From positions 22,740-86,739 of the forward strand of contig CAWBBA010000015.1 in assembly GCA_963786905.1 (NCBI GenBank): a DNA stretch of 64,000 bases, read 5' to 3'. The notes below the pieces were generated by a model that was not told where the DNA came from, did not search any database, and saw only the letters and a program-made list of their open reading frames with translations. Below, piece by piece: positions 1,849 through 59,620 of the stretch. The DNA is from an uncultured delta proteobacterium (lineage in GTDB: Bacteria; Desulfobacterota; Desulfomonilia; Desulfomonilales; Desulfomonilaceae). Each line of letters starts with the position of its first letter. Position 1 is the first letter of the stretch. The position numbers and the translations under genes were made by a program.

Positions 1849-4800
1849 TCAACCAATTCCCTCTTCTGGCTCCATTTTGTCATCAAGCACTGAGCGGACG
1901 ACCTCCAGCACCTGCCGAATGTCATACGGCTTGTTGACGAACCCCTTTGCCCCTGCCGCGAGTGCATCCTTGGTCGGACCGTCTAGCCGAGTAGCCGCTG
2001 GCTGATGACCACCTTGACCGAGGGATCGAGGCTCAAGAGACCTTCGAGGCATTGCTTACCGCCCATCTCAGGCATTATGAGATCCAGGATCACCAGGGAA
2101 ATCTCTCTGCTTCGCGCTCTGGTACAGCTCCAGAGCCTCTTTGCCGTTCGAATGCCGTGATCACCTTGTACCCGGCCTTTGTGAGAATCCTCAAGCAAAG
2201 GTCCCGAATCATTGCCTCGTCATCCACGAGGAGAATGGTCTCAGATCCTCCTTGTCGGCATTGTTCCGGCGATCGTTTCCTCGTAGTTCCTCATCTGACA
2301 CGAGGGCAGGGAAATATATCTTGAAGGCGGTCCCCTGACCCGGTTCGCTGTAACACCTGATATGGCCACCGTGCTGTTGGACGATCCCGTGGACCATAGC
2401 CAGACCGAGTCCCGTTCCTTTGTCCACCGCTTTGGTCGTGTAGAAGGGCTCGAAGATGTGCTCCAGCGTCTCTTTGTCCATGCCGGCGCCGGTGTCCGTG
2501 ACCGTCAGGATCACATAGCGCCCGGGCTTGGCGTTAAGATGCGATTGGCGCATATTCCTCGTCCAGGACGATGTTGGCCGTTTCGATGACGAGCCTTCCT
2601 CCCTCAGGCATTGCGTCCCGTGCGTTCACCGCAAGATTCATCAGGATCTGATCCACCTGAGTGGGATCGGCATTGATCGTGGCCAGATCCTCAGCGAGAA
2701 AGAGCTGTATGTCGATCATCTTGGGAATGGTTCTCTCGAGCATTTTCCGCATTTCATTGATACGGCGATTCAGGTTGAGCGGCTGAGTGGTTTGATCTCC
2801 GTCTTCCTGCTGAAGGTGAGCAGTCTCCTGAACCAGGTCAGCCCCACGCCTTGCGGATTCATTTATCTTCTGGAGGTCGGCCCGGTAACGCTGCAGGCAA
2901 GTCCTCATCGCCGAGAATCAACTCGGAGTATCCGAGCGCTACTTGCAGGATGTTGTTGAAATCGTGGGCAACGCCTCCGGCAAGGGTGCCGACCGCCTCC
3001 ATCTTTTGGGCCTGAAACAGTTGCTTGGAAAGCTCCAAGTGCTCGGTAATATCGCGCTTCACAGCAACGAAGTTCACGATCTTGCCTGAGGATGTCTCTC
3101 ACAGGCGATATCGTGGCCTCCTCGTGATAGATGTGCCCATCCTTCCTTCTGTTGACTAACTGTCCTGACCAGACATGGCCTCCCAGAATGGTATCCGACA
3201 CTGCTCGTAAAACTTTCTATCATGCTCACCGCCGTGAGGAAGCGAGGCTTTTGGCCAACAGCCTCTTCCTTCGAGTAGCCCGTAATCCTCTCGAAAGCTG
3301 GGTTTACATATTGAATGGTTCCCTGTTTGTCAGTGATGACGATAGCTTCAGCAACCTGTTCCACGGCTGTTGCCAGTCTCTTCTGAGCCTCTTCCGACCG
3401 TCTGCGGGCAGTCACGTCACGAATAATCATAGTTGACTTCCACTCGCCTTCAACGTCCTTGAACAAGACCGAAGATAATTCGGCAGGGAAAACGGTCCCA
3501 TCCTTCCGTACGAAGAGGAGTTCGCCCTGAAATTTTCCAGTTCGCTTTCGCTCTTCCAATGCCATTTTCAACCTGGGGTCCGCAATATCCACAAGACTGT
3601 TTCTGCCTGCTCGACGGATTTCTTCTTCTGTCATCCCAAACAGGTGGCAAACTGCTGGATTGGCCCTCAGTTTCTGCCATCCGGTATTGTTAGCAGTATC
3701 GCGTCAAGGCTGTTTTCAAATAGCGAACGAAACTGCTCTTCACTTTCCAGAGCGCATCTTCGGATCGCTTGCGCTCGGTGATGTCTTCGAAGATCCCCAG
3801 CACACCAATGACTCGTCCATGTCTGTCCTTGTAGGGAACTTTGATAGTATGTGCCCATCGATCTTGACCGGGGAGTTGATAGGGTTCTTCAAAGTCTTTA
3901 ACCATACCGGTATCCATGCAAGCCTGGTCGTCGGCACGGTACAATTGAGCCAGTTCGGCAGGATGGAAAGCGAAGTCGTCCTTGCCTACGATCTGTTCCG
4001 GTACGATTCCCAGGTCTGCGGCGTAGTTCGTGTTGCAGGACAGGTAGACCGAATTGCGGTCTTTGAGGAAGATGCGTTGAGGAAGATGCTCAACCAGACT
4101 CCGATGGGTCTCTTCGCTCTGTCGCAGCAACTCTTCCGAATTTTTGCGCTCGGTGATGTCAGTGGCGACGTGGATGACTTTCCGGATGTTTCCTTCTTGG
4201 TCGAGGACCGGCGTACAAGTGACAAGGTAGTAGTCGCCCAGGGCCTTCATCTCCATCTCCACGCTCTCCGTCGAACCCGATTCAAGAAGAGCCTCCATCG
4301 GGCAGCCTTGAGGTCTCTTACCATTTGCATGAAAAACCTCATAGCACTTGGCATTCAGCAACTCGTCATGAGATTTGCCTGTGACCTGAATGCACTTCTT
4401 GTTGGCTGCAACAATCCCGTGTTCCAGGTCCATTATAAAGGTTGGGTGGCCTGTGGCCTGGAAAATGTTCTCCCAATCCTGGCGGGCCTCCAGGAGTTCC
4501 GCTTCGGCCTGTTGACGGCGGGCGATTTCCTCCTGCAACGCGTGATTGGCTTGCTCCAACTGGAAGACCTTTTTCTCCAGCTTGTGAATGAGAACTTCAC
4601 TGTATTCCTTGAGCAAGCCCATTTGGTGACCTTCTGGGGCCCTGGCCGGGGACAGTTCGCCGCGGGCTTTTCTTGCCAGGACTTCCCGGATGCGGGCCAT
4701 GAACGGTTCCGGCTCGACGGGTTTGACGATGAAGGCGTCCGCCCCAAGGTCCAACGCCAAGCGTTCGTCTTTGGGCTCGGTGTAGGTGGCGGTATAGACA

Positions 4801-10962: not shown

Positions 10963-11132
10963 GCAACGCGTGTCACAATATGAACCAAATGGGCCAAAGG
11001 TTTAGCCTCCACCACAGCGGGGCAAGGAATCCAGCGGGTCGTCCTCATTTAGGGATGACCCAGCGGAGATCCGGCAAACCTCGGAAGTAACATGTTTATG
11101 AAAGCACTATATCGATACGGGGAGTGGATGCC

Positions 11133-12494
11133 ATGAGAAGAATTCTCATCCTGGTCGCACTGGCGCTTTTTGTCTGTTCCTACGCGGCTGATGCCGCGGT
11201 AAAAGTTGACCCGAAATTGTATGGGTCGCCCGAGGGGCAGGTCTGCATCAAATGCCATGAGCTGAAGTCCCCTGGCCTGTTTAAGCTGTGGCGGTCCGGA
11301 AAGATGGGGCAGGCGGGGGTCAACTGCTACGACTGCCATAAGGCAGAGAAGAAGACAGACAAGATACCGGGGGACCCGGACGGGTACGACCACCGGGGCT
11401 TCTGGATCGCTACGCTGGTCAGCCCAAAAGACTGTTCCCGGTGCCATAAGGAGCAGTTCGACCAGCAGCAGGTTTCCCACCATGCTAAGGCAGCGGATAT
11501 TCTGAATTCTTCTGACAACTACCTTGGCACGGTGGTCGGTGGACCGGCCGCGGTGAATACAGGGTGCCGCCAGTGCCACGGCTCCAACATCAAGGTACTC
11601 AAAGATGGGAAACTGGATCCCGATACCTGGCCTAATACCGGAATCGGCCGCATAAACCCTGATGGAAGTAAAGGGAGCTGTTCCGCGTGTCACACCAGGC
11701 ACCGTTTTTCCAAGGAACAGGCCAGGCGCCCGGACGCGTGCGGAAAGTGTCATCTCGGTCCGGATCATCCCCAGATCGAGGTTTTCAACGAGAGCAAGCA
11801 CGGCATCCTCTACCAGGCGTTCAGGGACAAGATGAACATGGACAAAGGGGAGTGGGTAGTCGGGGTCGACTACCAGGACTCAGCCACATGCGCTACATGT
11901 CATATGGGGGCCACGCCAAATCAAGCGGCGACTCACGACGTGGGCCAGCGAATCTCCTGGACCCTGCGGCCTGTGGTCTCCAAAAAGCTGGAGCATTGGA
12001 AAGACCGGCGGGACAAGATGAAAGACGTATGCCGCCAGTGCCACGGGGACTTCATGGTCAACGATTTCTACAGTCAGTTCGATGGTCTCGTGGACTTGTA
12101 CAACAATAAGTTCGCTATTCCTGCTATGAACGTCCGCCAGAAACTGATGGACACGGGCAAACTCACCAAGGCAGACTTCGACGACAAGCTGGACTGGATC
12201 TATTACGAACTGTGGCATCACGAAGGCCGCCGCGGACGGCACGGCGCTGCCATGATGGGTCCGGACTATGCATGGTGGCATGGTATGTATGAGGTGGCAA
12301 AGCATTTCTATACGTCTTTTCTCCCTGAAGTCGAGAGAATCATGGGCGGAAAGGATGCGGCAATGCCTATCCTTAACGAGTACGTCTTCAAGGATCCCCA
12401 GCATCGCTGGTATAAGGACGGGATGAGCAAGGAAGAACTGCAGAAGATAGAGCAGTTCTATCAGCAAAGGTACGGCGGCAAAGAGGCCAAGTAA
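11133..12494 (+). CDS. Secreted octahaem cytochrome c of the hydroxylamine oxidoreductase (HAO) family
   Basis: Eight CxxCH motifs (CIKCH, CYDCH, CSRCH, CRQCH, CSACH, CGKCH, CATCH, CRQCH). There is a signal peptide MRRILILVALALFVCSYAADA and a C-terminal YYELWHHEGRRGRHGAAMMGPDYAWWHG region typical of HAO-like proteins. GGGGAG lies 8 nt upstream of ATG 11133. Confidence 0.7.
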   Translation: MRRILILVALALFVCSYAADAAVKVDPKLYGSPEGQVCIKCHELKSPGLFKLWRSGKMGQAGVNCYDCHKAEKKTDKIPGDPDGYDHRGFWIATLVSPKDCSRCHKEQFDQQQVSHHAKAADILNSSDNYLGTVVGGPAAVNTGCRQCHGSNIKVLKDGKLDPDTWPNTGIGRINPDGSKGSCSACHTRHRFSKEQARRPDACGKCHLGPDHPQIEVFNESKHGILYQAFRDKMNMDKGEWVVGVDYQDSATCATCHMGATPNQAATHDVGQRISWTLRPVVSKKLEHWKDRRDKMKDVCRQCHGDFMVNDFYSQFDGLVDLYNNKFAIPAMNVRQKLMDTGKLTKADFDDKLDWIYYELWHHEGRRGRHGAAMMGPDYAWWHGMYEVAKHFYTSFLPEVERIMGGKDAAMPILNEYVFKDPQHRWYKDGMSKEELQKIEQFYQQRYGGKEAK

Positions 12495-12531
12495 GACTCG
12501 TCTGAGGCCACGTTAATACAAGGGCGCCTTC

Positions 12532-13134
12532 ATGAAAGGAACCACTAGAATCCGGAGACTTGTTCTGCCGGTTCTGATCCTGGGCCTGATCACACTGTGC
12601 CTGGGATTGGGAACCGGCTTGACCCTGGCCCAATTCCAGGACCGGACCCAGCCGTCGCCTGAAGATATCGAACGCGAATCCGATCAGGAATTTCCGGTCC
12701 CGTTGACACCCCTGCCGAAGACCATCACTCCGTGCCGTGCTTGTCACGGTCCGGAGAAGGATTTTCCCGTAAACTTCCAAAGGCGGGAAGATTTGCTTGT
12801 CCATAAGAATGTAAAGCTCAGCCACGGCGGCGTGCGAGTCTGGTGCCTGGACTGCCACAGCCCTGATAATCGCAACTATCTCTTGCCGCTGAGTGACGGC
12901 AAGCCAATTGATTTCGAGCACTCGTATCTTCTCTGCGGCAAATGCCACGGCACCAAGTACAGGGACTGGCGAAACGGCATACACGGTAGAAGGACCGGCA
13001 ATTGGAACGGTGAAAAGACCTACTACCGGTGCGTGAGTTGTCACGATCCGCATTCGCCCAAATTTAAGCCAATCGAGCCCATGCCCCCTCCCAGGAAGCC
13101 GTGGACCCCAAAAGAAACCAAGGCCAAGCACTAA
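12532..13134 (+). CDS. Membrane-anchored tetrahaem cytochrome c
   Basis: One N-terminal TM helix (LVLPVLILGLITLCLGLGTGL) and four CxxCH motifs (CRACH, CLDCH, CGKCH, CVSCH). The first haem motif lies about 40 residues beyond the helix and has no CxxCHxM. Confidence 0.75.
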   Translation: MKGTTRIRRLVLPVLILGLITLCLGLGTGLTLAQFQDRTQPSPEDIERESDQEFPVPLTPLPKTITPCRACHGPEKDFPVNFQRREDLLVHKNVKLSHGGVRVWCLDCHSPDNRNYLLPLSDGKPIDFEHSYLLCGKCHGTKYRDWRNGIHGRRTGNWNGEKTYYRCVSCHDPHSPKFKPIEPMPPPRKPWTPKETKAKH

Positions 13135-13146
13135 AGGTTCAGAGCC

Positions 13147-14124
13147 ATGAGCGATCAGACTGATAGTTCCGGTAAAGACAAATCAAACTCCGCAAGTGAA
13201 TCTGACTCCGAAATTGCGAAGAGACCGGATTCTCAATCCGCGGAGAATCGCAGCATGCTCCCGGATCGACGCACGTTCCTAGCCGGAGCTGCGAGTGTCC
13301 TGGGGATGATGGCGGTCAGCTCGTGCTCGTGGCAGGAATTCTTTCAGCAGCAGTTTCAAAGAATGACCAAGAAGGAGATCGAAGAGACGGTCGCCCGGCT
13401 TCAGGAGGACTACAAGAAGAAATACGGAAAGGAATTCGTGGTCGGGGCAGAATCCCCCATCGACGGAACCCTCTTTCGGTACGGGCTTGATATTCAGCGT
13501 TGCATCGGCTGTCGCCGGTGCGTGTACGGCTGCGTGGAAGAGAACAACCTGTCGAGAGACCCGCAAATCCAATACATAAGAGTCCTCAGGTTCAAAGACG
13601 GAAACATGGATCTCGAAGAATCGGACATCTACTACGAACCTGAAGAGGTGCCGGAGAAGGGCTATTACTACATGCCGGTGCAATGCCAGCATTGCGCCAA
13701 CGCGCCTTGTACCAAGGTGTGCCCTGTGCGGGCAACATGGACAGAGCCCGACGGCATTGTGGTGGTCGATTACAACTGGTGTATCGGATGCCGCTACTGC
13801 ATGGCAGCGTGCCCGTACATGGGCCGATGGTTCAATTTTTCCGACCCTGGTATTCCAAGCGAGCAGGTGAATCCCAAAACTCACTATCTGGGGAATCGTC
13901 CGAGAATGCGCAATGTGGTGGAAAAGTGCACTTTTTGCATTCAGAGAGTCCGCAAAGGGATATACCCCAAATGCGTCGAGGTCTGCCCGGTCGGAGCCCG
14001 CAAGTTCGGCAATCTCCTCGATCCCAACAGCGAAATCAGCATGATCATAAAGACCAAGAGGGTCTTCCGTTTGAAGGAAGATCTGAACACGCAGCCGAAA
14101 TTTTATTACTTCTTCGCTACTTGA
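13147..14124 (+). CDS. Tat-exported four-cluster [4Fe-4S] protein (NrfC/PsrB/DmsB-like)
   Basis: Twin-arginine motif DRRTFLAGAAS. Cys clusters are CIGCRRCVYGC, CQHCANAPCTKVCP, CIGCRYCMAACP and CTFCIQRV...CVEVCP. Confidence 0.85.
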   Translation: MSDQTDSSGKDKSNSASESDSEIAKRPDSQSAENRSMLPDRRTFLAGAASVLGMMAVSSCSWQEFFQQQFQRMTKKEIEETVARLQEDYKKKYGKEFVVGAESPIDGTLFRYGLDIQRCIGCRRCVYGCVEENNLSRDPQIQYIRVLRFKDGNMDLEESDIYYEPEEVPEKGYYYMPVQCQHCANAPCTKVCPVRATWTEPDGIVVVDYNWCIGCRYCMAACPYMGRWFNFSDPGIPSEQVNPKTHYLGNRPRMRNVVEKCTFCIQRVRKGIYPKCVEVCPVGARKFGNLLDPNSEISMIIKTKRVFRLKEDLNTQPKFYYFFAT

Positions 14125-14127
14125 CAG

Positions 14128-15386
14128 GTGGGGAACGTCATGCAGAGATCCGGATTCCTATTCGCAGCAGCCAGGAGGCTCACGACAGGTCCCCGAATAT
14201 ATTACATTTGGGTTCTGGTGCTGCTCGTCACGGCCATTGTCGGCATCGCGGCCTATACCAGGCAGCTTCAGCAGGGCCTGATCGTCAGCGGTATGACGAG
14301 CTACGTCTCCTGGGGATTGTACATCGGGAACTTTACGTTCCTGGTCGGTGTGGCCGCGGCCGCGGTACTCCTCATCATTCCAGCCTACCTCTATGACTTC
14401 GGCCCCATCAAAGAGGTCGTCATCGTCGGAGAAGCGCTGGCAGTGAGCGCGCTTTGCATGTGTCTCATGTTCGTCACGGCCGACTTAGGACGTCCTGACA
14501 GGGTTTGGCATCTCATACCAGGTCTGGGCATATTAAATCTGCCGCGGTCCCTCCTCGGATGGGACATAGTGGTTCTGAACGGGTATCTGTTTCTGAACCT
14601 CTTCATTCCCGGGTACTTGCTGTGGAACGCATACCATCAAAAGCCTGAAAACACGAACTTCATCCTTCCCTTCATTCTTCTTTCCATCCCCTGGGCGGTC
14701 AGCATACACACCGTAACCGCGTTTATTTACAATGGTCTCGTAGCGCGACCATTCTGGAACGCTTCCATTCTGGCCCCAAGATTTCTGGCGTCCGCTTTCT
14801 GTTCCGGACCGGCGCTGGTAATCCTCCTGTACCAGATCGTCAGAAAGTACACTCAAATTTCACGTCAAAGACGAAGCGCTCTTCAAAATCGCGGAGATGA
14901 TCTCGATCGCGATGGCGGTCAATCTGTTCTTGCTTGGAGCGGAATTCTTCAAGGAACTCTATTCGGACACCCATCATCTGTCCCCTTTGAGATACCTTTA
15001 TGCCGGCCTTCACGGCAAAGGGGTGCTTATCCCGTGGATATGGACTGCTTTCACATTCAACATCATTGCATTCTTCATTTTTCTCATACCGGTTACCCGC
15101 AAGAATTTCGCAACTCTCAACGCGGGGTGCGTTCTCATCATAGTGGGTATCTGGATCGAAAAAGGGATGGGCCTGATCATTCCGGGATTTATCCCTGCGC
15201 CATTAGGCGAGGTCTGGGAGTACCTGCCGACAAGGATCGAAATCCTCGTGATCCATGGGGATATGGGCTATCGGACTGCTCATACTCACCCTGATACTGA
15301 AAATCATTATTCCCATCGAAACCGGGGAGTTCACTAAGGCGACGCAGATCGAGAGAGCATACCCACACGTTGGAGTACATCCATGA
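14128..15386 (+). pseudogene. NrfD/PsrC-like polytopic membrane quinol-interacting subunit, with at least 2 frameshifts
   Basis: ORF 14128..15294 reads as a multi-TM protein until about 14870. ORF 14897..15337 continues it (MISIAMAVNLFLLGAEFF...). A third frame gives the C-terminus IWAIGLLILTLILKIIIPIETGEF, ending with a TGA that overlaps the next ATG (ATGA at 15383-15386). Confidence 0.7.
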
Positions 15387-16231
15387 ATACGAAGGCCGAG
15401 GCAGGCATTGTTGTGAGCAGAAGGCCGCGCTTCAAAGCAAGACTTTGGGCTCTCGCTGTGATCGCCAGTGCTTCGGTGCTCATGACCGCCTTGCCGCCGC
15501 CTTCTGTGGGAGCGGACACTGCTCCGGCCAAGGATTTGAGCACTCTTCTCAACGATCTCAACAGTCCTGACCCGGCAGTGGCGTCTCAAGCCGCGACCGA
15601 GATCAAGAACCAGCACGCGAAGCAAGCAATACCTGCTCTGGCCCAGGCAATTAAGCATCCTAATGAAATCGTGCGACTCACGGTGATCGAGGCGCTTTCA
15701 GAGATCGGTCCCGACGCGGCCCCCGCGGTTCCGGCTCTGGCTGAGGCGCTTAAGGACAAAGACCCAATGATCAGGGAAGCTGCGGCATTGGCCTTGCTCA
15801 GCGTGGGGAGGCAGAGCACCGGTGCGGTGCCCGCGTTGGTATCCGCCCTGGGTGACGAAAACAAGCGGGTCCGCGACAGCGTGGTCTTGGCCCTTGTGAA
15901 TATCGGTGAAGCTGCGGTCCCGGACCTGATTAAGGCCCTTGAGAGCAAAGATCAGTCTGTCAGATCCTCGGCCACGACAGCTCTGGGAAGGATCGGAGGC
16001 CCGGCTGTCCCGGCCTTGGTGGCCCTGCTCAAGAAGGGAGACCCTCACAGCTCGACGGCGGCTTCAAAAGCCCTGGGAGAAGTGGGAGCCCCCGCAGTCG
16101 CGCCGCTGATAGAGCTGTTAACGACCGCAAAAGCGGAAGCTTCGAAACTTGCCGGAGAAAGCCTGGCGGCCATCGGTGCGCCGGCCGTCCCTCCCCTGGT
16201 AGATGCATTGCTGAAAAGGAAACAGCAGTAA
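15383..16231 (+). CDS. Exported HEAT-repeat (PBS-lyase HEAT-like) protein
   Basis: Hydrophobic N-terminal signal followed by about 7 repeats of the pattern xxVRxxAxxALGxIGxxAVPALxxAL. Confidence 0.75.
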   Translation: MNTKAEAGIVVSRRPRFKARLWALAVIASASVLMTALPPPSVGADTAPAKDLSTLLNDLNSPDPAVASQAATEIKNQHAKQAIPALAQAIKHPNEIVRLTVIEALSEIGPDAAPAVPALAEALKDKDPMIREAAALALLSVGRQSTGAVPALVSALGDENKRVRDSVVLALVNIGEAAVPDLIKALESKDQSVRSSATTALGRIGGPAVPALVALLKKGDPHSSTAASKALGEVGAPAVAPLIELLTTAKAEASKLAGESLAAIGAPAVPPLVDALLKRKQQ

Positions 16232-16345
16232 GCGGCAGACCTGTTGTGACCTACACTTTGAAATGACCGCCGCGACCGGTATTCAGACACTGGACATTGA
16301 AAAGTTTGTCGGAACATGGCCTTCGAAGTGAAGGAGGAGAAGAAG

Positions 16346-16858
16346 ATGAAAAAGACAGTCTATTCCCTGATGATCCTGTCTCTCTTTCTCTGCGTGCCTA
16401 TGCAGGCCACGACTCAAGACAAGGATTGTCCCGACTGTCCCAAGAGCTCAACTACCAGCACTTCTCTCGATGCCAAGTGGAAGGAGTTCACCCCGCCAGC
16501 GCTGGCGCCGGGAGAGCGGCCTGATTGCCACCGCGTGCAGTTCGGGAAACAGGACTGTGCCGAATGCCACAAAAAGGAGACCCCCGAGAGCTACAAAGCT
16601 GGTTGGGTTCCAAGCACGGCATCAATAGTGTGAAGTGCGGCATTTGTCACGGTGACGTGAACAATTATCGGGCCAGGCCGGACAGAGTGGTCTGCATTGG
16701 ATGCCACTCCGCGCAGGTCCATAACATGCCTGCCCAGGCTCTTGGTGACCAATTGCTCGTTCTGCCACAAGGGCCATTGGTTCACGGTCCACAAGATAAA
16801 AGATTACGAGAAGTTCTCTCCCGGAAGAGAGCAGCGTTTCAAAGTGCCCGGCTTCTAA
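16346..16858 (+). pseudogene. napM: NapM-like periplasmic tetrahaem cytochrome c, 2 frameshifts
   Basis: AAGGAGG precedes ATG 16346, followed by the signal peptide MKKTVYSLMILSLFLCVPMQA. The four haem motifs CAECH, CGICH, CIGCH and CSFCH are spread over three frames. The last frame reads VTNCSFCHKGHWFTVHKIKDYEKF and ends with TAA at 16856-16858. Confidence 0.6.
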
Positions 16859-16895
16859 GCGCTCTAGACCCGTTATCCGACTTTTGGAGGACACC

Positions 16896-19288
16896 ATGAG
16901 TATGACTCGAAGAGAAATGATAAAGTTGTCGGCGGCGGCATTTGCCGCAGGAGCCTTGAATATACCGTTCGCCGGACGTGCTGACGCATCGGGGGAGCCC
17001 ATGGAAGTGGACAAATGGGTCAAGGGCACATGTCGCTTTTGCGGTACAGGTTGCGGCGTCTATGTGGGAGTCAGGAAGGCAAGTGGTCGGTATCCGGGGT
17101 AATCCCCAAGCCGCGACCAATTTCGGGTTCCTATGCGTCAAGGGATTCAAAGGTTACATGAGCATGTACCACCCGGACCGGCTGAACTATCCCTTGGTTA
17201 AGGCAGAAGACGGAAAGTTCAAGCGAGTCTCCTGGGACGTGGCGCTCGACACTGTGGCGAACAAGTTCAAGGAACTGCAACAGAAGTACGGGAAGGACTC
17301 GGTGGCCTTTTACGGGTCCGGTCAGTGCATGACCGAAGAGAGCTACACCTTCAACAAGCTCTGGAAAGGCGGCTTCGGTTCCAACATGGTGGAAGGCAAT
17401 CCGCGGCTGTGCATGGCTTCGGCTGTGGGCGGGTACGTCACGACTTTCGGCACAGACGAGCCCGCAGGGTCCTACGCTGATATCGAGAAGGCGAAGACTT
17501 TTTTCATCGTGGGTTCCAACATGTCGGAGTGCCATCCGATTATTTTCCGCCGCGTAGCACGACAGAAGCTCAAAGATCCGGACAAGATCAACATCATCGT
17601 CTGCGAGCCTAGGCTCACTTCCACTGCACGGATTGCGGACGTCTGGCTCCCCGCGGACCCGGGCACCGATCTCGCGGTTTTTCATTGCATGGCCCGAGAA
17701 ATCGTCAAAAACAACTGGATTGATAAGTGGTACGTGGAGAACCTCTGTAGATTCACCACTGGAACAGAAGTCGGATTTCAAGACTTATGCTCAATTCCTC
17801 GAGCAGTTCACTCCTGAAGCGGTGGAAAAGACTGACACGATGCCCTGCGGCCAACATCAGGGAGGCGGCCCGGCTGTTCGGGACCCAGGGACCGACCATG
17901 AGTCTGTGGACCATGGGTCTGAATCAGACGGACGAGAGGCGTTTGGGCCAATAATCTGATTCACAATCTCCACCTGATCACGGGCAATATCTGTAAGGAA
18001 GGAGCAGATTCCTTTTCACTGACGGGACAACCCAACGCGTGCGGCGGCGTACGTGAGACGGGCTCCCTGTGCCATCTCCTTCCAGGGACCCGACCTGTGG
18101 CGAATGCGGCGGCCAGGGAGCAGGTCGAGAAGGCGTGGAAAATCCCCGCGGGGAAAATTGATCCCAAGCCGGGGTTCCACACCATGGAGATGTTCGCAAA
18201 GCTGGGAGCAGAGAACGACGCTTCCAAGCCGCTCAAAGGAATGTTCGTCACCACCACGAACCCTGCTCAATCGCTACCGAACGGCCACAAGTACTGGAAA
18301 GGAATGAAGGACGGGTTTCTCGTAGTTGCCGACATCTTCCCGACACGAACCACGCAGTTCGCCGACGTGATATTGCCCGCGGCCTTTATTTACGAGAAGG
18401 GCGGAGTTTTCGGCTGCTCCGAACGCCGCAGCCAGCTCACCGGAAAGTGCGTAGAACCTCCCGGTGAGGCTAAACCGGACCTCTGGATGGCCGCGCAGCT
18501 TGCCAAGCGCATGGGACTGGAAAAACTCATCCCGTGGAACGGCGATGATGCTCCTGCGAGTTAACAAAATGGCCTGGGATGATTACCGGGAATGCGTAAA
18601 GATGACCGAGCACACGCTTTACGGCATAACCTACGAACGGCTCCAGAAATCGGAAGAAGGGCTCCAGTGGCCGTGTCCAGACGACAAGAGCCCTGGAACG
18701 GCCATACGCTACGTGCGCGGCAAAGACCCACTCATGAACATGCCCGAAATCGTCAAAGTGCCGCCACAGGCTCTAATCTATTTCTACGGGGATCAACAGC
18801 ACGAAGGCAAAGCGAACGTGTTTCTGAGGCCTTACAAGGGGCCGGAAGAGCCGCCGGACAAGGAGTATCCGTTTTTCCTGACCACCGGCCGTGTTATCGA
18901 ACAGTGGCACAGCGGCACCATGACCATGCGGGTGCCGGAAATAGCTCGCTCCCAGCCCAATGCTTATGTGGAGATCAATCCGAAGGATGCGGAGGCGTAC
19001 GGCATCAAGAACGGCGACATGGTGAAAATGATCAGCCGCCGCGGCTTCAACATATTGCCTGCCCGGGTGGTGAAGATGTCGCTGCCCGGAATTCTTTTCG
19101 TCCCGTGGTTTGATCAGGATTGGGATCGGATGATGAACCGGGTGACCATCGACGCGTTTGATGACGGTTCTAAACAACCTGAGTTCAAAATTTGTGCGGT
19201 ACGAATCGAACGGGTGGGTGATCCCAAAGACGTGGCGGACATGACGATCATCTCCAGTGTGGACGCCCCATTTCCGGAAAAGGTGTGA
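16896..19288 (+). pseudogene. napA: Periplasmic nitrate reductase catalytic subunit NapA, at least 5 frameshifts
   Basis: Tat signal MSMTRREMIKLSAAAFAAGAL and the N-terminal FeS motif KWVKGTCRFCGTGCGV. Fragments 16884..17102, 16978..17817, 17633..17959, 18097..18564 and 18464..19288, plus an unlisted frame (PAANIREAARLFGTQGPTMSLWTMGLNQ), tile a full NapA. Confidence 0.85.
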
Positions 19289-19525
19289 CGAGACGATCGT
19301 AATCGTTCACCGCGGAAATCGCGAGATCGCAGAGAAAGCGTTTTTCTGTGTTTGTTGCTGAGCAAGAAGCATAGTGGATTGCGAGTGAATCACCTTGAAC
19401 ATGTGCATTGGCTGAGTCTTCGTGTCCCGATACGTATTAACTCATTTGAGCTCATTATCTCTGCGATCTCGGCGCACTCTGCGGTAAATCCTGCTTTCTG
19501 ATCCAAAGCTCCGGAGCTTTCCCCA

Positions 19526-19828
19526 ATGGTCATCACCGGCAGTGCCCTTCTTATCAAGCGCGGCGCGGACATAGAGGTCCTGGAGCGGCTTAAGCAGTTC
19601 CCTGAGGTGACTTTCCACGTGAAGTCGGAATCGGGAACCGAACTGGTTGTGAATTTCGAAGCTGAGGACCACGATTCGTTGGAGCGGCTCTGCACAAGGA
19701 TTAAGGAGGCGATTCCCGAAATCATCGAAATAGCCCATGTGTATGTGAATTTTGAAGACGAGATCGAAAAGATCAAGTCGGGAAAAATTGTTAAGGGATC
19801 GCTTAACAAGCCGAAGTTCGACGAATGA
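19526..19828 (+). CDS. napD: NapD-like chaperone
   Basis: 100-aa protein (LIKRGADIEVLERLKQFPEVTFHVKSESGTELVVNFEAEDHDSLERLCTRIKEAIPEIIEIAHVYVNFE) with the NapD-type pattern, positioned after napA. Confidence 0.6.
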   Translation: MVITGSALLIKRGADIEVLERLKQFPEVTFHVKSESGTELVVNFEAEDHDSLERLCTRIKEAIPEIIEIAHVYVNFEDEIEKIKSGKIVKGSLNKPKFDE

Positions 19829-19875
19829 TGCTGGTGGTTAGGAGGTAAGAATTCAGTTATCGGCGGCGAAAGTTT

Positions 19876-20177
19876 GTCATTGCGAGCAAAGCGAAGCAAT
19901 CTTATCGTTTATACTGACTGCCAAAGATAATGTCCCTTTGACCATGAGGCGGGCACGTTGCAGGGGAGCTGGTTCGGGTCTGCCTTGTTTGTCATTCCCG
20001 CGAACGCGGAATCCAGAAGGCCCAAATAACAACAATGGTAAACCCTGTTCAGACTTTCCCGGACTGGATTCCCACGTTCGCGGGAATGACGGGATTTGGC
20101 CTCTCTGAATCGGACAAGAATTCTGGCAATGGCTATAAGCTCTGAGATTGCTTCGTCGTTTCACTCCTCGCAATGAC
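19876..20177. repeat. Nested palindromic (REP/MITE-like) element
   Basis: Outer arms are GTCATTGCGAGCAAAGCGAAGCAATCT (19876-19902) and GAGATTGCTTCGTCGTTTCACTCCTCGCAATGAC (20144-20177). Inner arms are GTCATTCCCGCGAACGCGGAATCCAG (19991-20016) and CTGGATTCCCACGTTCGCGGGAATGAC (20064-20090). Confidence 0.8.
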
Positions 20178-20205
20178 GCGGACGCTACAATGTCCGCGTA
20201 AGTGA

Positions 20206-21018
20206 ATGGTAATTTCAGGAGAACAACGAACCTTGAGTTCAGGTTGGATAAATAGTCTTCTGAAACGGTTTCTTGGTGAGCGCGAGAATCCTCTGGCAAA
20301 TCAGTACAGCGAGAACCGTCTTCGCCCTCCCGGAGCAGTGGACGAGAAACGATTTATGGCGCTTTGCATACGCTGCAATCGCTGCCTGGAGGTCTGTCCG
20401 TACAACTCAATCCGGCGCGCGGGCCTGGGCACAACTATGGGAACGCCTTACGTTCTGCCGCTGGAGAAGGCTTGTTATCTTTGCATGGCCTGCTGCCGCC
20501 TCTGTCCTACAGGGGCACTGGACAGGCTCCTGAGCAACCCCGAGGGCGTTGCGATGGGCAAAGCCAGGATCGACACCTCCATCTGCTACAGCCACCTCTT
20601 TGTGGACCATGATGTGCTGCCTGAAAACGCAGGCCAAAAGATCGGTGCGCTTTGCAACACGTGCTACAATGTTTGTCCGCTTCCCGACAAAGCCATAGCG
20701 CTGAAGCAGAACCTCTTCCCTGTAATTCTGGACGGTTGCGTAGGTTGCGGTATCTGCACCGAAAGGTGCCCTACCCGTCCCAGACGGGCGATCAACGTGA
20801 TTCCCGCGGGTGTGGGGCGGGTTGACGAGGCAGGGTTCTATTTTCGCAAGGCCCGGAAACACTTTGAGTCAGCGGTGCGTGTGGAAAGGGACGGGGCATC
20901 AGGGGCCTTGAAAGGGGAGCAACTTCTAGAGCAGAAATCCTTAATTGAAGGGACCAAGGAACAGCCGCAATTCGAATTCCCATACCAGGTTCCAAAATTC
21001 ATAGAAGGTTGGGATTGA
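20206..21018 (+). CDS. napG: NapG-like multi-cluster 4Fe-4S ferredoxin
   Basis: LRPPGAVDEKRFMALCIRCNRCLEVCP, CYLCMACCRLCP, CNTCYNVCP and CVGCGICTERCP. The start codon is uncertain. Confidence 0.7.
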   Translation: MVISGEQRTLSSGWINSLLKRFLGERENPLANQYSENRLRPPGAVDEKRFMALCIRCNRCLEVCPYNSIRRAGLGTTMGTPYVLPLEKACYLCMACCRLCPTGALDRLLSNPEGVAMGKARIDTSICYSHLFVDHDVLPENAGQKIGALCNTCYNVCPLPDKAIALKQNLFPVILDGCVGCGICTERCPTRPRRAINVIPAGVGRVDEAGFYFRKARKHFESAVRVERDGASGALKGEQLLEQKSLIEGTKEQPQFEFPYQVPKFIEGWD

Positions 21019-21857
21019 TGTACGGGCCGTACAGAAAAACAGTTCAGATACTGGTGTTCGGGATCATGTTCGGGATCCCGTTACTCAATTTGTATGAAAT
21101 ATATGCAGTGACCGGTACTTTCTACGCGGTCAACATCGGGGGGCTCGGCATAGCTGATCCAGTGGTAATCCTTCAAGCGATATTTGCATCGGGCGAACTC
21201 ACAGTGCCATTGCTGGGCGCAGCCCTTTTCCCCGTCTTTATTGCGCTGTTATTCGGCAGAATCTGGTGCGGCTGGATGTGTCCTTTTCACCTGCTGGCCG
21301 ACGTCGCGGCGTGGTTACGCAGACGATTCAGAGGAAAAGGCTCGCGGCTTGCCAGGGATGAAAGCTTGGTGGTCGCGGATTCATTCAAGGCCAACACTTG
21401 GCGCTATGGCTTCCTCGCCGCGGGAACCCTCGCGGCCGGTGCTATCAGCATCCCCGTCCTGAACTACGTGAGCGCTCCCGGTATTCTGAGCACGGAAGCG
21501 ATGATACTGGTCAAAGAACGGATGGTGTCACTGGAGTTCTCTTTCATAGCCCTTCTTTTCCTCCTCGAACTGTTAATCTTACCCCGTTTCTGGTGCAGGC
21601 TCTTCTGCCCCACCGGCGCTTTTATTGCAGTCTTTCGCGTCCCCTTCACTCTCCGGGTCGGGACGAGTATAAGAACTCCCAAGGCCCCATGTTGCAAGGA
21701 GAACCGATGTTCAGGCGCGTGTCCGATGGGTCTGGCGCCTTTCCGGGAGGGGAACAATCTGCTCTGCACGAACTGCGGCCTGTGTATCGATGCGTGCCGA
21801 GCGGCAGAAGGTTCTGGTAGGCTGAGATTCCAAGGCTTTCAGGCATTTGATCGGTGA
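21009..21857 (+). CDS. napH: NapH-like membrane FeS protein
   Basis: Four TM helices with CGWMCPFHLL and RFWCRLFCPTGA motifs, and a C-terminal CSGACPMG...CTNCGLCIDAC. Overlaps the end of napG. Confidence 0.8.
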   Translation: MGLMYGPYRKTVQILVFGIMFGIPLLNLYEIYAVTGTFYAVNIGGLGIADPVVILQAIFASGELTVPLLGAALFPVFIALLFGRIWCGWMCPFHLLADVAAWLRRRFRGKGSRLARDESLVVADSFKANTWRYGFLAAGTLAAGAISIPVLNYVSAPGILSTEAMILVKERMVSLEFSFIALLFLLELLILPRFWCRLFCPTGAFIAVFRVPFTLRVGTSIRTPKAPCCKENRCSGACPMGLAPFREGNNLLCTNCGLCIDACRAAEGSGRLRFQGFQAFDR

Positions 21858-22636: not shown

Positions 22637-23101
22637 TCAAATTATTCTGCGTTTCAGGTCCGACGCGCCTGAAGCTGATTGACTGCGGGGAAACTCGGTC
22701 AGTAGCCATTCCAAGATAGCCCGCGCCTTCGTGAAATTACTCGCATCAAAATGGGCCTTACCTATGCCCAGCATCAATGACGGGATAAATTCCTCAGGTG
22801 GGAGAAAACCGACTGTCCGGTGATGCTCTTTTCCGTCACCGTCCAGCGTTATAACTGTTGGAGTGTATTGAATCACGAAACGAGTCGCCCAGGCCGCCAG
22901 AGAGTTTGTGTAAGCGCGCAGCGGTACCATGTAGCGATGAACGAACTCTACTGTGCGAGGATTGGGATACGTGACCGTATCCATCTGTTTGCACGCGGGT
23001 CAACCGGGGTTGAAGAAGTCGAGCAGCACGTGTTTTTCTTGCACCCTCGCCATAGACAGGGCCATGTCCCAATCCGTTTCCCACCTTATGTTAGCTGCCA
23101 T
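22637..23101 (-). CDS. Thioredoxin-fold (Thioredoxin_7-like) protein with in-frame UGA at the first position of the CxxC motif; candidate selenoprotein
   Basis: ORFs 23000..23296 and 22637..22984 share one frame and are separated only by TGA 23000-23002. The joined reading is MAANIRWETDWDMALSMARVQEKHVLLDFFNPG-U-PACKQMDTVTYPNPRTVEFV. GGGAG precedes ATG 23101. A SECIS-like hairpin lies downstream. Confidence 0.65.
22965..22982 (-). promoter_or_regulatory. SECIS-like hairpin GGAUAC-GGUCAC-GUAUCC
   Basis: Perfect 6-bp stem starting 18 nt after the UGA. The apical loop begins with GGUC. Confidence 0.55.
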
Positions 23102-23174
23102 GAGTGAGGCTCCCGTAATGTCAATAGCGCTCCCGAATTGCGCACTCCATCGTAATGAGCCGCACCTATAGATA

Positions 23175-23200
23175 TTATAGCAGTTCTCGAAAGTAATCAC
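23175..23200 (+). repeat. Dispersed ~26-nt motif TTATAGCAGTTCTCGAAAGTAATCAC (copy A)
   Basis: Near-identical copies occur at 53781-53809 (+) and 35471-35494 (reverse orientation). Each lies in an intergenic region next to GC-rich hairpin repeats. Confidence 0.6.
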
Positions 23201-23631
23201 GGTTTGACATGTGGGTGCCACTGCTGGCTTGTCCAGCAGTGCGGCTCCGTTGAGAAAACATTTATGAGAATGACGATAGGAAACACTGCTGTTCAAGCCA
23301 GCAGTGGCACCCGACGCCCGATACAGGCTGGCGGGACAGGCATCTAAAAGTGTCTCAAAACCAGAAATTCGGCCAGGAAACGATGCGGGTCTTGCGAGGA
23401 CGCTTCTCGAACCGCCGGAAATGAGGGCGCAGCGAGCGGCGCCCGCCCCTACACCACGATCTCTTGATCGACCCAGGGGCCGTTTTCAATGCACACCGGT
23501 ATAACAACCGCGGGAACCACCCGCCGCGAACGTTTCCCCGCCGTGATCGGTGTTTTCACCATTCTGGATCACCACTTGTAATTCCATCCGTACAGACGGA
23601 AAATTAAGGTATAACGAAAACGGAGAGTCCC

Positions 23632-23871
23632 ATGAGAATTCAGTTGAGCCTTTACGCGTCCCTTGCCTCACATTTGCCCGAGAAGGGCGGAGGAAACTCC
23701 TGCACCTTGGAGGTTCAGGAGGGCACCGCGGTGCGGGACATTTTAGGACAGTTGAAGATAGGTTTGGACGTCCCCAAAATCATCTTCTTGAACGGGCTCC
23801 ACGCGGGCTTCGACGATGTACTGAAGAATGGAGACAGACTAGCTGTCTTTCCGCCCATAGCAGGCGGATAG
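23632..23871 (+). CDS. ThiS/MoaD-family sulfur-carrier protein (C-terminal GG)
   Basis: 79 aa ending ...GDRLAVFPPIAGG, a beta-grasp-type sequence. Confidence 0.75.
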   Translation: MRIQLSLYASLASHLPEKGGGNSCTLEVQEGTAVRDILGQLKIGLDVPKIIFLNGLHAGFDDVLKNGDRLAVFPPIAGG

Positions 23872-23980
23872 TCGCACATGTTTTCACGCAAGGCCTCGGG
23901 CCAAATGGCGCCTCGGCGGGCATGCGAAAGTTATTGGCTATTTGCTCCTATTTCGATGTTCCTGTCTCAACGGTGGTCAC

Positions 23981-24739
23981 ATGGAACCGGAAATTCCTCG
24001 ATATAGTCGGCACCAGCTTCTGAGAGTATTCGGAGAAGATGGCCAGGAGAAGATACAGAAATCCCGTGTCTTCGTAGCTGGACTCGGAGCCCTCGGTTCC
24101 CTCATTGCTATTCTTCTTGTTCGGGCAGGAGTCGGTCTTGTCAGAGTTGCCGATCAGGACTGCCCCGAGCTGCATAATCTCCACAGGCAAATTCTTTACG
24201 ACGAAGAGGACGCGACTCGCTGTGTCTCCAAGGCTCAGGCAGCGGCTCATCGACTTCGGGCAGCCAATTCCGAAGTAAATGTCCAAATCGTGGATGCGGC
24301 AATCGGCCCGGACAATGTCGAGGAACTTACAGACGGTGTGGATCTGGTAGTGGACGCGCTCGATAATATACGGACGCGATACCTGATCAATGACGTGATC
24401 CTGGCCCGGGGCATCCCCTACATATTCGGAGGAGCCGTAGAAACCGTGGGGAATGTCATGACAATTATCCCAGGAAAGACTCCTTGTCTCAGATGCCTGT
24501 GGCCGGACCCAAAAGCCGTTGATGATCATCCGAGGGCGTCTGCTGTGGGAGTTCTTTCCTCGGTGGCCACTGCGGTTGCCTCCTTCGAGGTGACGGAGGC
24601 CCTGAAAATCATGGTAGGACGAGAAGAGGATGTACTCTCGGGCCTGCTGGTGTTCGATGTGTGGCGGAACGATTTTCACATTGCGCCGCTGGAACCGGAC
24701 CCGGGATGCATCTGCAGAGGATTGATCCAACATCGTTGA
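23981..24739 (+). CDS. ThiF/MoeB/HesA-family E1-like adenylyltransferase
   Basis: RYSRHQLL...KIQKSRVFVAGLGALGS (nucleotide-binding loop), DNIRTRYLIND and a CLRC zinc motif. The start is taken at MEPEIPRYSRHQ. Confidence 0.8.
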   Translation: MEPEIPRYSRHQLLRVFGEDGQEKIQKSRVFVAGLGALGSLIAILLVRAGVGLVRVADQDCPELHNLHRQILYDEEDATRCVSKAQAAAHRLRAANSEVNVQIVDAAIGPDNVEELTDGVDLVVDALDNIRTRYLINDVILARGIPYIFGGAVETVGNVMTIIPGKTPCLRCLWPDPKAVDDHPRASAVGVLSSVATAVASFEVTEALKIMVGREEDVLSGLLVFDVWRNDFHIAPLEPDPGCICRGLIQHR

Positions 24740-38994: not shown

Positions 38995-40709
38995 TCATGC
39001 GCTGTTTACCCCGGGTTCCTGGAGCATTTCCCAGTTGCGGATAACTGTAAGAGCTTCTTCGGGATTTCTCACCGAAGATAGACTTTCAACCAGTTGCCGA
39101 TTACGGGCGGCTCGGCTAACGAGAGCAAGAACTTGAACCTGAACAGCAGGTATGTGAGCCGGAGAGAGAATCAGGAAGACAAGTTCAATGGGCTTGCCCG
39201 CGGACTCGCCGAGGACACCCTGTCGCGTCAAACCCAAGGCCACCACCGGCGTAGAAATTCCCTCAATCCGAGCATGCGGGAACGCTACTCCCTCATTGAA
39301 GAAGGTCGAACCCTGCTCTTCTCTCTTCCTCACTGCTTGCAAAATCTCGTCAGAATCACATGCTTCGACGTCTTTGTCCGCGACCTCCACCAAGGCCTTC
39401 AGGACAAGATCTTTCTCAACAGGCGTGTCCCACGTGATGATTCGGCGACTCGACAACAAACCGCTGAGGCTCAGAGAACCCGCGCTGACAGAAGGTTCGA
39501 CCACAGACGTTTTCTTACTTTCAGGTAACCCTGCCTCCGCTTTATGTGTCGGGGTTTTCTGGCTGCTGGTGTCGAGAACTACCACAGTAATGCCTTCCGG
39601 GTTCTTGATAAGGCGTTCAACAACACTCTTTTCCCCAACAGTCTTTTCCAGAAACGGGACCTTGCCGGGGCTGCCAAGGACAATGTGGCCGACTCGGTAT
39701 TCCTTTGCAAAACGCAGGATAGTGTCTGCAGACGTCCTCTCCCTTGTACGTGAACACCATGGCCCCCAGTTGTTTTGCAAGGGTCAGCGTACTTGAGAGA
39801 AGCCGCTGGGTGTGCGCATCAATGACGGTAGGCTCTTCCGAGGGTGTTTGAACGTACACTGCATACCAATTCCGGTTGAGTCGTCCGGCAAAGCGGGAAG
39901 CATAGCGCAAGAGCATCTCACTATTGGGACCGCGTGAGCTCAGACAGACCATCACCTGATCAGGAGCGGGATCGCTGCCGTCCCCCGAGCTTTCGCGCAT
40001 CCTCAGGTCAATCTGCGATGCAAGTTCACGCAGTGTAAGTTCACGAAGCGTTCTCCAGGTTCGGCGTCTTGAAAAAATTGGCCAAGGCTGTCTCAATACG
40101 TTCCGGCGGATAGATTTTGCCTTCCCGCAAACGTTCCAGGAGGTCTTCGGTGGTGAGGTCCACATTTACGATCTCGTCCGCTTCAGCGAGGATCGTGTCC
40201 GGCAGGCGTTCCCGGACCTTGACGTGAACGGTCTTTTCTACGGTGTCGTACAGGCTCTCCAAATGCTGAACGTTCAGGGTCGTAATTACGTGTATTCCCG
40301 CGGCCAGAATGTCTTGAACGTCCTGATAGCGTTTGGGATTTCGACTACCAGGCACATTGGTATGAGCCAGTTCATCAATGAGCGCGACCTCGGGTCTGCG
40401 GTCCAAGACCGCATCAACGTCCATTTCCTCTAAGACGTGTCCTCGGTATTCCTGACTTCTCCGCGGGATCACTTCCAGGCCGTCGATGAGTTTGGCTGTA
40501 TCCACTCGGCCGTGAGTCTCGATCAACCCCACCACAACGTCTATGCCTTCAGCCATGAGCCGGTGGCCCTCTTGGAGCATCTGATATGTCTTTCCCACTC
40601 CCGCGCCGTAGCCCAGGTAAATCTTCAACCTGCCCCGGCGGGAGCGGCGAATCATGCGCAAGAAGGTATTGGCTCTATCTTCGGTCATAGGTTTTCGTTC
40701 ATCTTGCAT
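38995..40709 (-). pseudogene. KdpD N-terminal sensor domain plus Usp domain fused to a PTS EIIA(Ntr)-like domain; no kinase core; 2 frameshifts in the KdpD-N/Usp part
   Basis: ORF 40041..40709 carries GRLKIYLGYGAGVGKTYQML...ALIDELAHTN (KdpD_N). ORF 39617..40165 is Usp-like. ORF 38995..39780 is uninterrupted and contains the Usp C-terminus (HIVLGSPGK...VVERLIKNPEGITVVVLD), a linker and an EIIA_2 domain (REEQGSTFFNEGVAFPHARIEG...PIELVFLILSP). Confidence 0.7.
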
Positions 40710-41286
40710 CGAGAGACAGGTTCAATGTCAGCACGTTCACCCTCGGCTCTCCGAGGATTCCCAAGGTCCTCCCCTCGGTATGGGCTTGCACCTTTGCCAG
40801 AATCGCTTCTTCGCTCATGCCGCGTGCCTTGGCAACCCGAGCCGGCCTGTATGAGAGCGTTCTTCGACACTTATATGCGGATCCAAACCGCTGGCCGAGG
40901 CTGTTACCGCATCGGCGGGGACCGGAACCGTGGGTGGCAAGATTGTTTTCCGCGCGATAGGCCTCGACCCGTTCTTTTACCGAATCGATCAATTTCTTGG
41001 AGGTAGGACCGAGATTGCTGCCTCCTGAGCTTGCCGCGTCGTATCCCACGTCGCCCGCAGCAGAGGGCCGTGGATGAAAGTACTTTGGACCTGTGAAATT
41101 TTGGGCAAGAAGCTCTGACCCAATGATCTTTCCATCTCGTACTATCAGGGAACCGTTGGCCTTGTCGAGGGAACAGCGCCTGTGCTACGCCCCACACCAC
41201 CAACGGATAGATGCCGCACACAATCACGGCCAAAGAGAGCGGTAGCTACTACGGAAATGCGAAGCTCGGACAATGAGATTCTTCAT
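40699..41286 (-). pseudogene. kdpC: K+-transporting ATPase subunit C, at least 3 frameshifts
   Basis: GGAGGAG precedes ATG 41286. Fragments read AVIVCGIYPLVVWGVAQALFPRQ, NGSLIVRDGKIIGSELLAQNF (other frame) and GYDAASSGGSNLGPTSKKLIDSV...[44 protein letters not shown]. Confidence 0.8.
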
Positions 41287-41301
41287 GACAGATACTCCTC
41301 C

Positions 41302-43331: not shown

Positions 43332-43345
43332 GTCGGTAGTTCCTC

Positions 43346-58303: not shown

Positions 58304-58322
58304 GGCAAACCCTTTCTCATAC

Positions 58323-59517: not shown

Positions 59518-59620
59518 GTGTATTCTCCTCATGCCGCTTGTTAAGCCACTTTAGAGCCATATTGGCCTGCCTTGATGTCCTTCCGAGTTCAGGACCAAGC
59601 ACAAGTTTTTGAACGGGGGA

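Follow-up and report, generated by a model that had tools for sequence, protein, structure and literature searches.

The minus strand of a 64,000-nucleotide stretch of DNA from an uncultured member of the Desulfomonilaceae (assembly GCA_963786905.1, contig CAWBBA010000015.1, positions 22,740 to 86,739; the whole stretch is called the window below, and coordinates are counted from its first letter) carries at 22637..23101 a gene of 154 codons whose reading frame is interrupted once, by an in-frame UGA at codon 34. A first-pass annotation of the window had described two open reading frames (ORFs), 23000..23296 and 22637..22984, as lying in one frame and separated only by a TGA, and translation of the minus strand confirms this, the only stop between them being TGA 23002..23000. 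With the UGA written as U for selenocysteine (Sec), the product reads MAANIRWETDWDMALSMARVQEKHVLLDFFNPG-U-PACKQMDTVTYPNPRT...DLKRRII, and the joined translation reproduces the local reading given in that annotation, ...VQEKHVLLDFFNPG-U-PACKQMD..., which can also be set out as ...LLDFFNPG-U-PAC-KQMD.... The ATG at 23101..23099, from which residues and codons are numbered here, fits the N-termini of full-length homologues, and because these begin M-x-x-x-I-x-W-E we take it as the real start. The features of the gene are as follows; SECIS stands for selenocysteine insertion sequence, and P0014 is a homologue whose structural model is described below.

22637..23101, minus strand: predicted selenoprotein gene, 154 codons plus stop (from translation, with the start defined by homologues)
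23110..23114, minus strand: Shine-Dalgarno-like GGGAG, read from the sequence, with 8-nt spacing to the ATG
23000..23002, minus strand: in-frame UGA, codon 34, predicted Sec, first position of a UxxC motif (conserved TGA, Cys in minority forms)
22991..22993, minus strand: TGC, Cys37, resolving Cys of UxxC (invariant Cys in homologue alignments)
22965..22982, minus strand: SECIS-type hairpin, stem 22982..22976 with 22971..22965, loop GUCA 22975..22972, invariant G28-U29 at 22975..22974
22953..22994, minus strand: possible lower helix flanking the hairpin, GUGC (22994..22991) with GCAC (22956..22953), weak
22784..23041, minus strand: thioredoxin-fold domain, residues 21-106 (Pfam Thioredoxin_2, P0014 model, Foldseek)
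22640..22798, minus strand: C-terminal helical tail, residues about 102-154, made of the last thioredoxin helix and two further TPR-like helices
22637..22639, minus strand: ordinary TGA stop of the gene

TGA is the commonest stop of long ORFs in the window (25 of 43) and also terminates this gene, so UGA is not reassigned genome-wide and any recoding at codon 34 must depend on its context. A scan of the window for further selenoprotein genes, in the form of in-frame TGAs with Cys-, Ser- or Thr-type motifs, returned 157 candidates; all except codon 34 were discarded, the others being antisense to real genes, ordinary gene ends or lacking in coding support.

The in-frame UGA is conserved and aligns with cysteine

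Relatives were collected in two ways. A search of 5.8 billion proteins gave 402 relatives, and a genome scan with one genome per species gave 309 loci, the best 80 of which were kept and, with three further contigs, made up the 83 loci compared. All 83 of the fetched loci have TGA at the homologous codon, and in 80 loci the tblastn matches run across it, covering query residues 1 to about 150. The TGA-bearing loci come from Desulfomonilaceae (84-91% identical), Syntrophaceae, other Thermodesulfobacteriota and Geobacteraceae, and further from several Ca. Brocadia (one of them a complete genome), Nitrospirota/Thermodesulfovibrionia, Chloroflexota and Acidobacteria. As the same codon recurs in 83 independent assemblies, a sequencing error was ruled out as the source of the TGA.

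The first-pass annotation had placed the UGA where thioredoxin-fold proteins have the N-terminal Cys of CxxC, and this placement holds on two counts. Among proteins of known structure the U aligns to the first Cys of the CVAC motif in the DsbD C-terminal domain, and within the family full-length Cys-containing homologues (CGAC, CSAC and CIGC; P0014-P0017, P0035 and Geomonas forms) align exactly at the UGA. These minority forms have a Cys codon (TGC or TGT) at the homologous position and are rarer than the TGA forms. One further full-length homologue, P0133 (189 residues), has Ser at the Sec/Cys position (NLG-S-TGC), which could reflect loss of activity, a different mechanism, or an artefact of sequencing or translation.

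Substitutions on the two sides of the UGA are of the coding type. In comparisons with close relatives (L004-L009), most differences in the 33 codons preceding the TGA are synonymous (12 synonymous and four non-synonymous against L007), and the downstream codons behave likewise; mostly synonymous change on both sides indicates, from the sequence comparison, that both sides are translated. This bears directly on the alternative that the TGA is a true stop, in which case the locus would be a pseudogene or would encode a 33-residue peptide followed by a 115-residue protein starting at Met40. Automatic annotation calls exactly such a 115-residue product, and the window contains many frame-disrupted genes. 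The homologues, which the annotation had allowed might show a genuine stop or two separate genes, instead have the TGA at every one of the 83 loci with coding conservation on either side, and uninterrupted Cys homologues exist; a thioredoxin fold made from the 115-residue fragment would be missing strands 1-2, helix 1 and the entire redox motif; and the downstream hairpin described in the next section covaries and goes with the TGA rather than with Cys. We consider a true stop extremely improbable.

A hairpin downstream of the UGA is conserved and covaries

The perfect hairpin GGAUAC-GGUCAC-GUAUCC that had been noted as starting 18 nt downstream of the UGA lies at 22982..22965, its first G being the 18th nucleotide after the UGA, and RNAfold returns the pairing. 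To this RNAfold adds a seventh pair (G-C), giving a 7-bp stem with the loop GUCA at −10.4 kcal/mol (z = −3.2; three of 200 shuffled sequences were as stable). A 71-nt stretch around the hairpin is unexceptional when folded (z = −0.9), so single-sequence energy is weak evidence and it is the comparative data that carry the case. The lower helix GUGC/GCAC appears only in the minimum free energy (MFE) folds of the window and of L004-L006; other members fold differently below the hairpin.

For the comparison, 74 distinct sequences were aligned without gaps and columns were counted with the U of the UGA as 1. Columns 21-26 pair with columns 33-38 in the same register in 73 of the 74, and 98.6% of stem cells are paired; shifting the 3' partners by one to three columns lowers this figure to 15-54%. 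At one pair a double change from A-U to G-C occurs in four sequences, combining an Asp-to-Gly replacement with a synonymous change of Tyr from UAU to UAC. The expectation that the hairpin would be conserved in orthologues is thus borne out, with covariation in addition.

The hairpin sits in a conserved peptide, MD(A/T)V(T/S)YP, and could in principle be a by-product of that motif, with read-through of the UGA being independent of any SECIS (for example by near-cognate suppression). Most stem nucleotides are indeed first or second codon positions of conserved residues and the loop GU is invariant because a Val codon requires it, so only the results from synonymous sites and covariation can separate constraint on the RNA from constraint on the protein. 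At the synonymous sites third positions are fixed to the pairing base: the stem Asp codon is GAT in 74 of 74 (60% elsewhere in the same genes), the stem Thr codon ACG in 66 of 67 (28% elsewhere) and the stem Ser codon TCG in 17 of 17 (16% elsewhere). Columns 27 and 30 are the third bases of an Ala/Thr codon and of the Val codon, both four-fold degenerate, and they form a standard pair in 73 of the 74 sequences through five pair types (AU 34, GU 17, GC 12, CG 9, UA 1), closing around the invariant G28-U29. When this pair is traced on a neighbour-joining tree of the remaining protein sequence, its state changes at least 23 times and yet 81 of 82 are still paired, which none of 20000 shuffles equalled. 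Pairing of column 27 with column 32, which would give an alternative 7-bp stem, was rejected because it is possible in only 29 of the 74 and the 27:30 pair explains the data better.

Cys forms of the protein were represented by three distinct sequences (five loci, three of them identical). The stem is lost in L087 (GGAGUC..UUACCC) and L088 (GAAGGC..GUAUCC) and degraded in L084, and Cys forms with similar residues use other codons (ACU UAC in L087), which would not be expected if the peptide alone dictated the hairpin. The by-product explanation therefore appears extremely unlikely. A single TGA-bearing locus departs from the pattern. In L030 (a Desulfomonilales metagenome-assembled genome, JBBSBY010000041.1, about 3099-3150) the TGA is kept and the family hairpin is lost, ACC UAC AGG replacing ACG UAU CCN; slightly upstream, by a few nucleotides, there is another stem-loop, AACAGU-UGGAU-ACUGUU, which may be a replacement SECIS.

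According to the bacterial SECIS consensus (PMC13188914) the first two loop positions hold a G, often followed by G or U, the distance from the UGA to the loop is 16-37 nt and the MFE is −7.5 kcal/mol or lower. The window hairpin agrees on all three points (loop GUCA, 24 nt from the UGA, −10.4 kcal/mol). An Rfam search of the whole window at gathering thresholds gave no match, and when the hairpin region was searched with an E limit of 10 the sole match was a chance miRNA one on the other strand. Being conserved, covarying and in line with the consensus, the hairpin is predicted to be a SECIS-type element.

A thioredoxin fold of the DsbD C-terminal type

With U modelled as C, Pfam places Thioredoxin_2 at residues 21-106 (E 5e-12) and also reports Thioredoxin_7 (E 7.6e-7); the tail gives a weak match to TPR_16 (E 0.04), and long-form members of the family have TPR_6/YfiO matches. 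The closest solved structures by sequence are of the DsbD C-terminal thioredoxin domain. As a stand-in for the window protein the structure of P0014 was modelled, a Cys homologue of equal length that is 59% identical in a gap-free alignment. The AlphaFold2 model (predicted local distance difference test score, pLDDT, 94) is a thioredoxin fold extended by two extra helices, and its CxxC lies at the N-terminal end of helix 35-44, the helices of the tail region being 102-119, 123-136 and 141-152. The top Foldseek matches are again the DsbD C-terminal domain (probability 1.0), with thioredoxin-plus-TPR proteins (YbbN/CnoX) as looser matches. On this model U34-P-A-C37 would be the redox centre of a thioredoxin fold like that of the DsbD C-terminal domain, placed at the N-terminal end of helix 1. 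The fold would suit a thiol-disulfide oxidoreductase in which U34 and C37 cycle between the selenol/thiol and selenenylsulfide states, and the short TPR-like helical tail is probably a docking site for a partner protein. Judged by eye, the protein sequence shows neither a signal peptide nor a membrane segment, so the protein is probably cytoplasmic.

Decoding of UGA34

By analogy with the standard bacterial mechanism, the hairpin 18-35 nt downstream of the UGA would act as the SECIS: SelB-GTP-Sec-tRNA(Sec) would bind the apical G-U and the complex would deliver Sec once UGA34 reaches the ribosomal A site. A different decoding has to be weighed, in which the UGA is read as Cys by a tRNA(Cys) of the selC* type with anticodon UCA, such as has been reported for some Deltaproteobacteria, and the product is an ordinary CxxC thioredoxin-like protein. 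Cys would be functional at this position, since natural Cys forms exist. Opal-to-Cys decoding was tested with genes of Desulfomonile tiedjei, and (8/4) tRNA(Cys)UCA species occur in Desulfococcus and related bacteria (PMC5389517). Nothing at the present locus points to Cys decoding: the window has no tRNA(Cys)UCA, having no tRNA at all; the strongly conserved SECIS-type hairpin with its GU loop fits SelB-dependent delivery, which normally carries Sec; and the TGA is kept across phyla with no reported tRNA(Cys)UCA. We therefore regard decoding as Cys as very improbable.

Several observations count against reading the locus as a selenoprotein gene. Inspection of the ORF list by eye gave no candidate for selA, selB or selD in the 64-kb window, and ARAGORN found no tRNA of any kind there, hence no selC. 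Indirect support for Sec machinery in this lineage comes from D. tiedjei, the cultured type species of the Desulfomonilaceae, whose selD itself has an opal Sec codon (PMC5389517). The hairpin has no curated Rfam family, so that its function rests on the consensus and the comparative data, and part of its nucleotide conservation is at the protein level, given the conserved peptide that it encodes. Many genes in the window are frame-disrupted and single-base errors there are plausible, although the occurrence of the TGA in 83 independent assemblies rules such an error out at codon 34. The family to which the protein belongs is graded 'predicted with high confidence', not verified, in a 2026 inventory (PMC13188914). 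There is no dedicated NCBIfam model for it, and for the window protein no NCBIfam model reaches its cutoff; scores of 42.6, 26.7 and 14.8 bits were obtained for the selenoprotein models TsoB, VPGUxxT type 1 and VPGUxxT type 2, whose cutoffs are 805, 275 and 350. Set against the conserved UGA, its pairing with Cys in homologues and the covarying hairpin, these points leave us confident that 22637..23101 (−) is one gene encoding a 154-residue, probably cytoplasmic, thioredoxin-fold selenoprotein of a known family, with UGA34 specifying Sec by way of a SECIS. Read in this way, the gene marks the uncultured Desulfomonilaceae organism as a probable selenium user.

Gene neighbourhood and the rest of the window

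Across 82 loci no gene neighbourhood is conserved for the family as a whole, most loci having nothing in common, and there is synteny only at the level of clades. In the closest relatives a divergent ThiS/ThiF pair and an NTP-transferase adjoin the selenoprotein gene. In nine of the 82 loci (L034, L040, L043, L051, L055, L057, L060, L061 and L069) there is, 0.5-1.2 kb downstream on the same strand, a gene resembling the catalytic subunit of ferredoxin:thioredoxin reductase (FTR), together with a glutaredoxin/NrdH-like CxxC gene in eight of them; seven of the nine also have, about 1.3 kb upstream, a gene for a YyaL/DUF255-type thioredoxin-domain protein (all these identities were assigned by eye). 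Such synteny is too patchy for the neighbourhood to assign a pathway.

A more far-reaching interpretation can be built on these loci and on the hairpin, and we put it forward as speculative and rather unlikely. It holds that the family SECIS is distinctively built, its requirement at the RNA level fixing the motif M-D-(A/T)-V-(T/S)-Y-P across phyla, and, as a separate matter, that the protein is a selenium-dependent cytoplasmic redox partner of FTR-like and glutaredoxin-like proteins. The distinctive build may consist of a 6-bp stem, a covarying N:N' cap closing a two-nucleotide G-U loop, and a dinucleotide bulge on the 3' side. If true, the role as a redox partner would differ from the 'thiol:disulfide interchange' role implied by the family name.

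In the window itself, genes for a ThiS/MoaD-like sulfur-carrier protein ending in GG (23632-23871, plus strand) and for a ThiF/MoeB-type E1 enzyme (23942-24739, plus strand) are divergent from the selenoprotein gene, synteny of the ThiF gene being confined to the closest Desulfomonilaceae loci. MoeB-type proteins are a listed selenoprotein family; the ThiF/MoeB-type gene of the window has no in-frame TGA. Upstream of the selenoprotein gene, the intergenic region between the divergent genes contains a 29-nt inverted repeat (arms 23213-23241 and 23284-23312, 93% complementary, 42 nt between the arms), each arm of which is itself a hairpin (CACTGCTGG...CCAGCAGTG). Apart from the window, the repeat is present only in contig L001, which is near-identical, and is absent from the relatives that are 84-91% identical.

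Farther away, 11124-21857 (plus strand) is a respiratory-type cluster encoding two multihaem cytochromes c, a 4Fe-4S dicluster protein, an NrfD-type membrane subunit, a frame-disrupted molybdopterin oxidoreductase and two NapG/NapH-looking Fe-S proteins. Many genes that appear broken, seen as adjacent or overlapping ORFs, lie at 16978-19290 (plus strand), about 38995-45153 (minus strand) and 56558-59532 (minus strand). One of them is a molybdopterin oxidoreductase, which loses its frame around 17815-18100 and again near 18560; the others, identified by eye, are split thiolase and FadB-like genes and fragments of KdpD, KdpB and KdpA. The pattern suggests that the assembly contains indel errors, perhaps of long-read origin, or that pseudogenes are widespread.

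Database entries for the family are commonly miscalled

That a stop-codon-based gene call would truncate this gene, as the first-pass annotation anticipated, is shown by its own database entry (P0001, 100% identical), a 115-residue product starting at Met40, the Met after the UGA. Most of the 402 relatives likewise span only the last 70-75% of the query, because their gene calls start at the Met after the UGA. Full-length database relatives are of two kinds, CxxC and 'W'xxC. For two of the 'W' entries the codon in the fetched DNA is TGA, the Trp having arisen because the gene caller used a code that reads UGA as Trp; full-length calls translated in this way stand on the short contigs L002 (190-759) and L003 (409-978). 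Further miscalled family proteins, either Trp-translated or 150-residue calls bearing the NCBI name 'outer membrane protein assembly factor BamD', are P0022-P0024, P0032, P0089, P0103, P0125 and P0126. The 'BamD' label is found on shortened calls of long-form members, and the labels of the window gene in public data are 'hypothetical' or 'thioredoxin-related'. The practical value of the present finding lies in annotation: a dedicated family model would repair more than 1700 database entries.

Comparison with known systems

At the level of the fold, the CnoX/YbbN proteins (PDB 3qou, 3qdn) resemble the window protein in having an N-terminal thioredoxin fold followed by TPR-like helices, and both structures are among the Foldseek matches. 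The likeness is one of fold only, with 12-14% identity and a root-mean-square deviation above 10 Å over the whole protein, and the tail of the window protein is much shorter. The DsbD C-terminal domain (PDB 1uc7, 2fwe-h, 1vrs) is the best match both by sequence (E about 1e-6) and by structure (about 29% identity). However, DsbD is a three-domain electron transporter of the inner membrane, whose N- and C-terminal domains are periplasmic and whose central domain spans the membrane, whereas the window protein is a stand-alone, soluble, single-domain protein of 154 residues with predicted Sec in place of Cys and a helical tail. Its identification as DsbD proper was rejected: membrane and N-terminal domains are both missing, and it reaches 36 bits with the NCBIfam DsbD model, for which the cutoff is 330.

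At the level of the RNA the natural comparison is with the SECIS of Escherichia coli fdhF, in which G23 and U24 are the apical bases needed for SelB (PMC8659212). Both hairpins lie within the coding region just past the UGA and have a small apical loop with a G and then a U; the spacing and stability of the window hairpin are within the consensus and its covarying 27:30 pair closes around the GU. The window GU is, however, 5 nt farther from the UGA than G23-U24 of fdhF, the window hairpin has no bulged U on its 5' strand and, if the 27:30 pair forms, there is a two-nucleotide bulge (A/U, then C) on its 3' side. The apical GGUC of the window is also the loop sequence of fdhF, in which G22:C25 is a closing pair.

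The closest counterpart of the gene as a whole is a family that is already in the literature. Thioredoxin-fold UxxC proteins are the commonest kind of selenoprotein, and a family named "Thiol:disulfide interchange protein" was reportedly predicted among them by Kryukov and Gladyshev in 2004. Zhang et al. (2006; PMC1794560) place it in three organisms, Geobacter metallireducens, G. uraniumreducens and Syntrophus aciditrophicus, the supplement of that paper giving G. metallireducens and G. uraniumreducens sequences with LLDFFNPGUIGCKQMDAVTYP...WTPT...EHHRTVGF, and the 2026 inventory lists the family as PF13098, UxxC, WP_011366075.1 (PMC13188914). By BLASTP the window protein is 47% identical to the G. 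uraniumreducens member (E 4e-52) and 42% identical to the G. metallireducens member (E 1e-42). It has in common with them LLDFFNPG-U-xxC-KQMD..YP, WTPT and EHHRTVGF, the same Pfam domain and the same Sec position; PF13098 (Thioredoxin_2), with Sec first in UxxC and in the context NPG-U-xxC-(K/Q)QM, is present in it. There are two differences. The published members are 186-190 residues long, whereas the window protein and its Desulfomonilaceae relatives have 154-156 residues and are without the last ~35 (...SEWTKRAYPYRLL); the C-terminal TPR-like extension ending ...SEW..RA.PY.LL (our own description of the published members rather than a published criterion) is missing from the window protein, which ends at residue 154 after its two extra helices. 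The published motif is U-I-G-C, whereas the window protein and its Desulfomonilaceae relatives have U-P/G-A-C. On these sequence features we treat the window protein as belonging to a short subfamily of the known family. The gene is, on the same grounds, a further member of a published and computationally predicted selenoprotein family and brings nothing conceptually new. The gains are modest ones: against the three genomes reported in 2006 the family now extends to 309 genome loci and more than 1700 database proteins, it is broader than reported (anammox Planctomycetota, Nitrospirota and Chloroflexota), and its predicted SECIS now has clean evidence of covariation.

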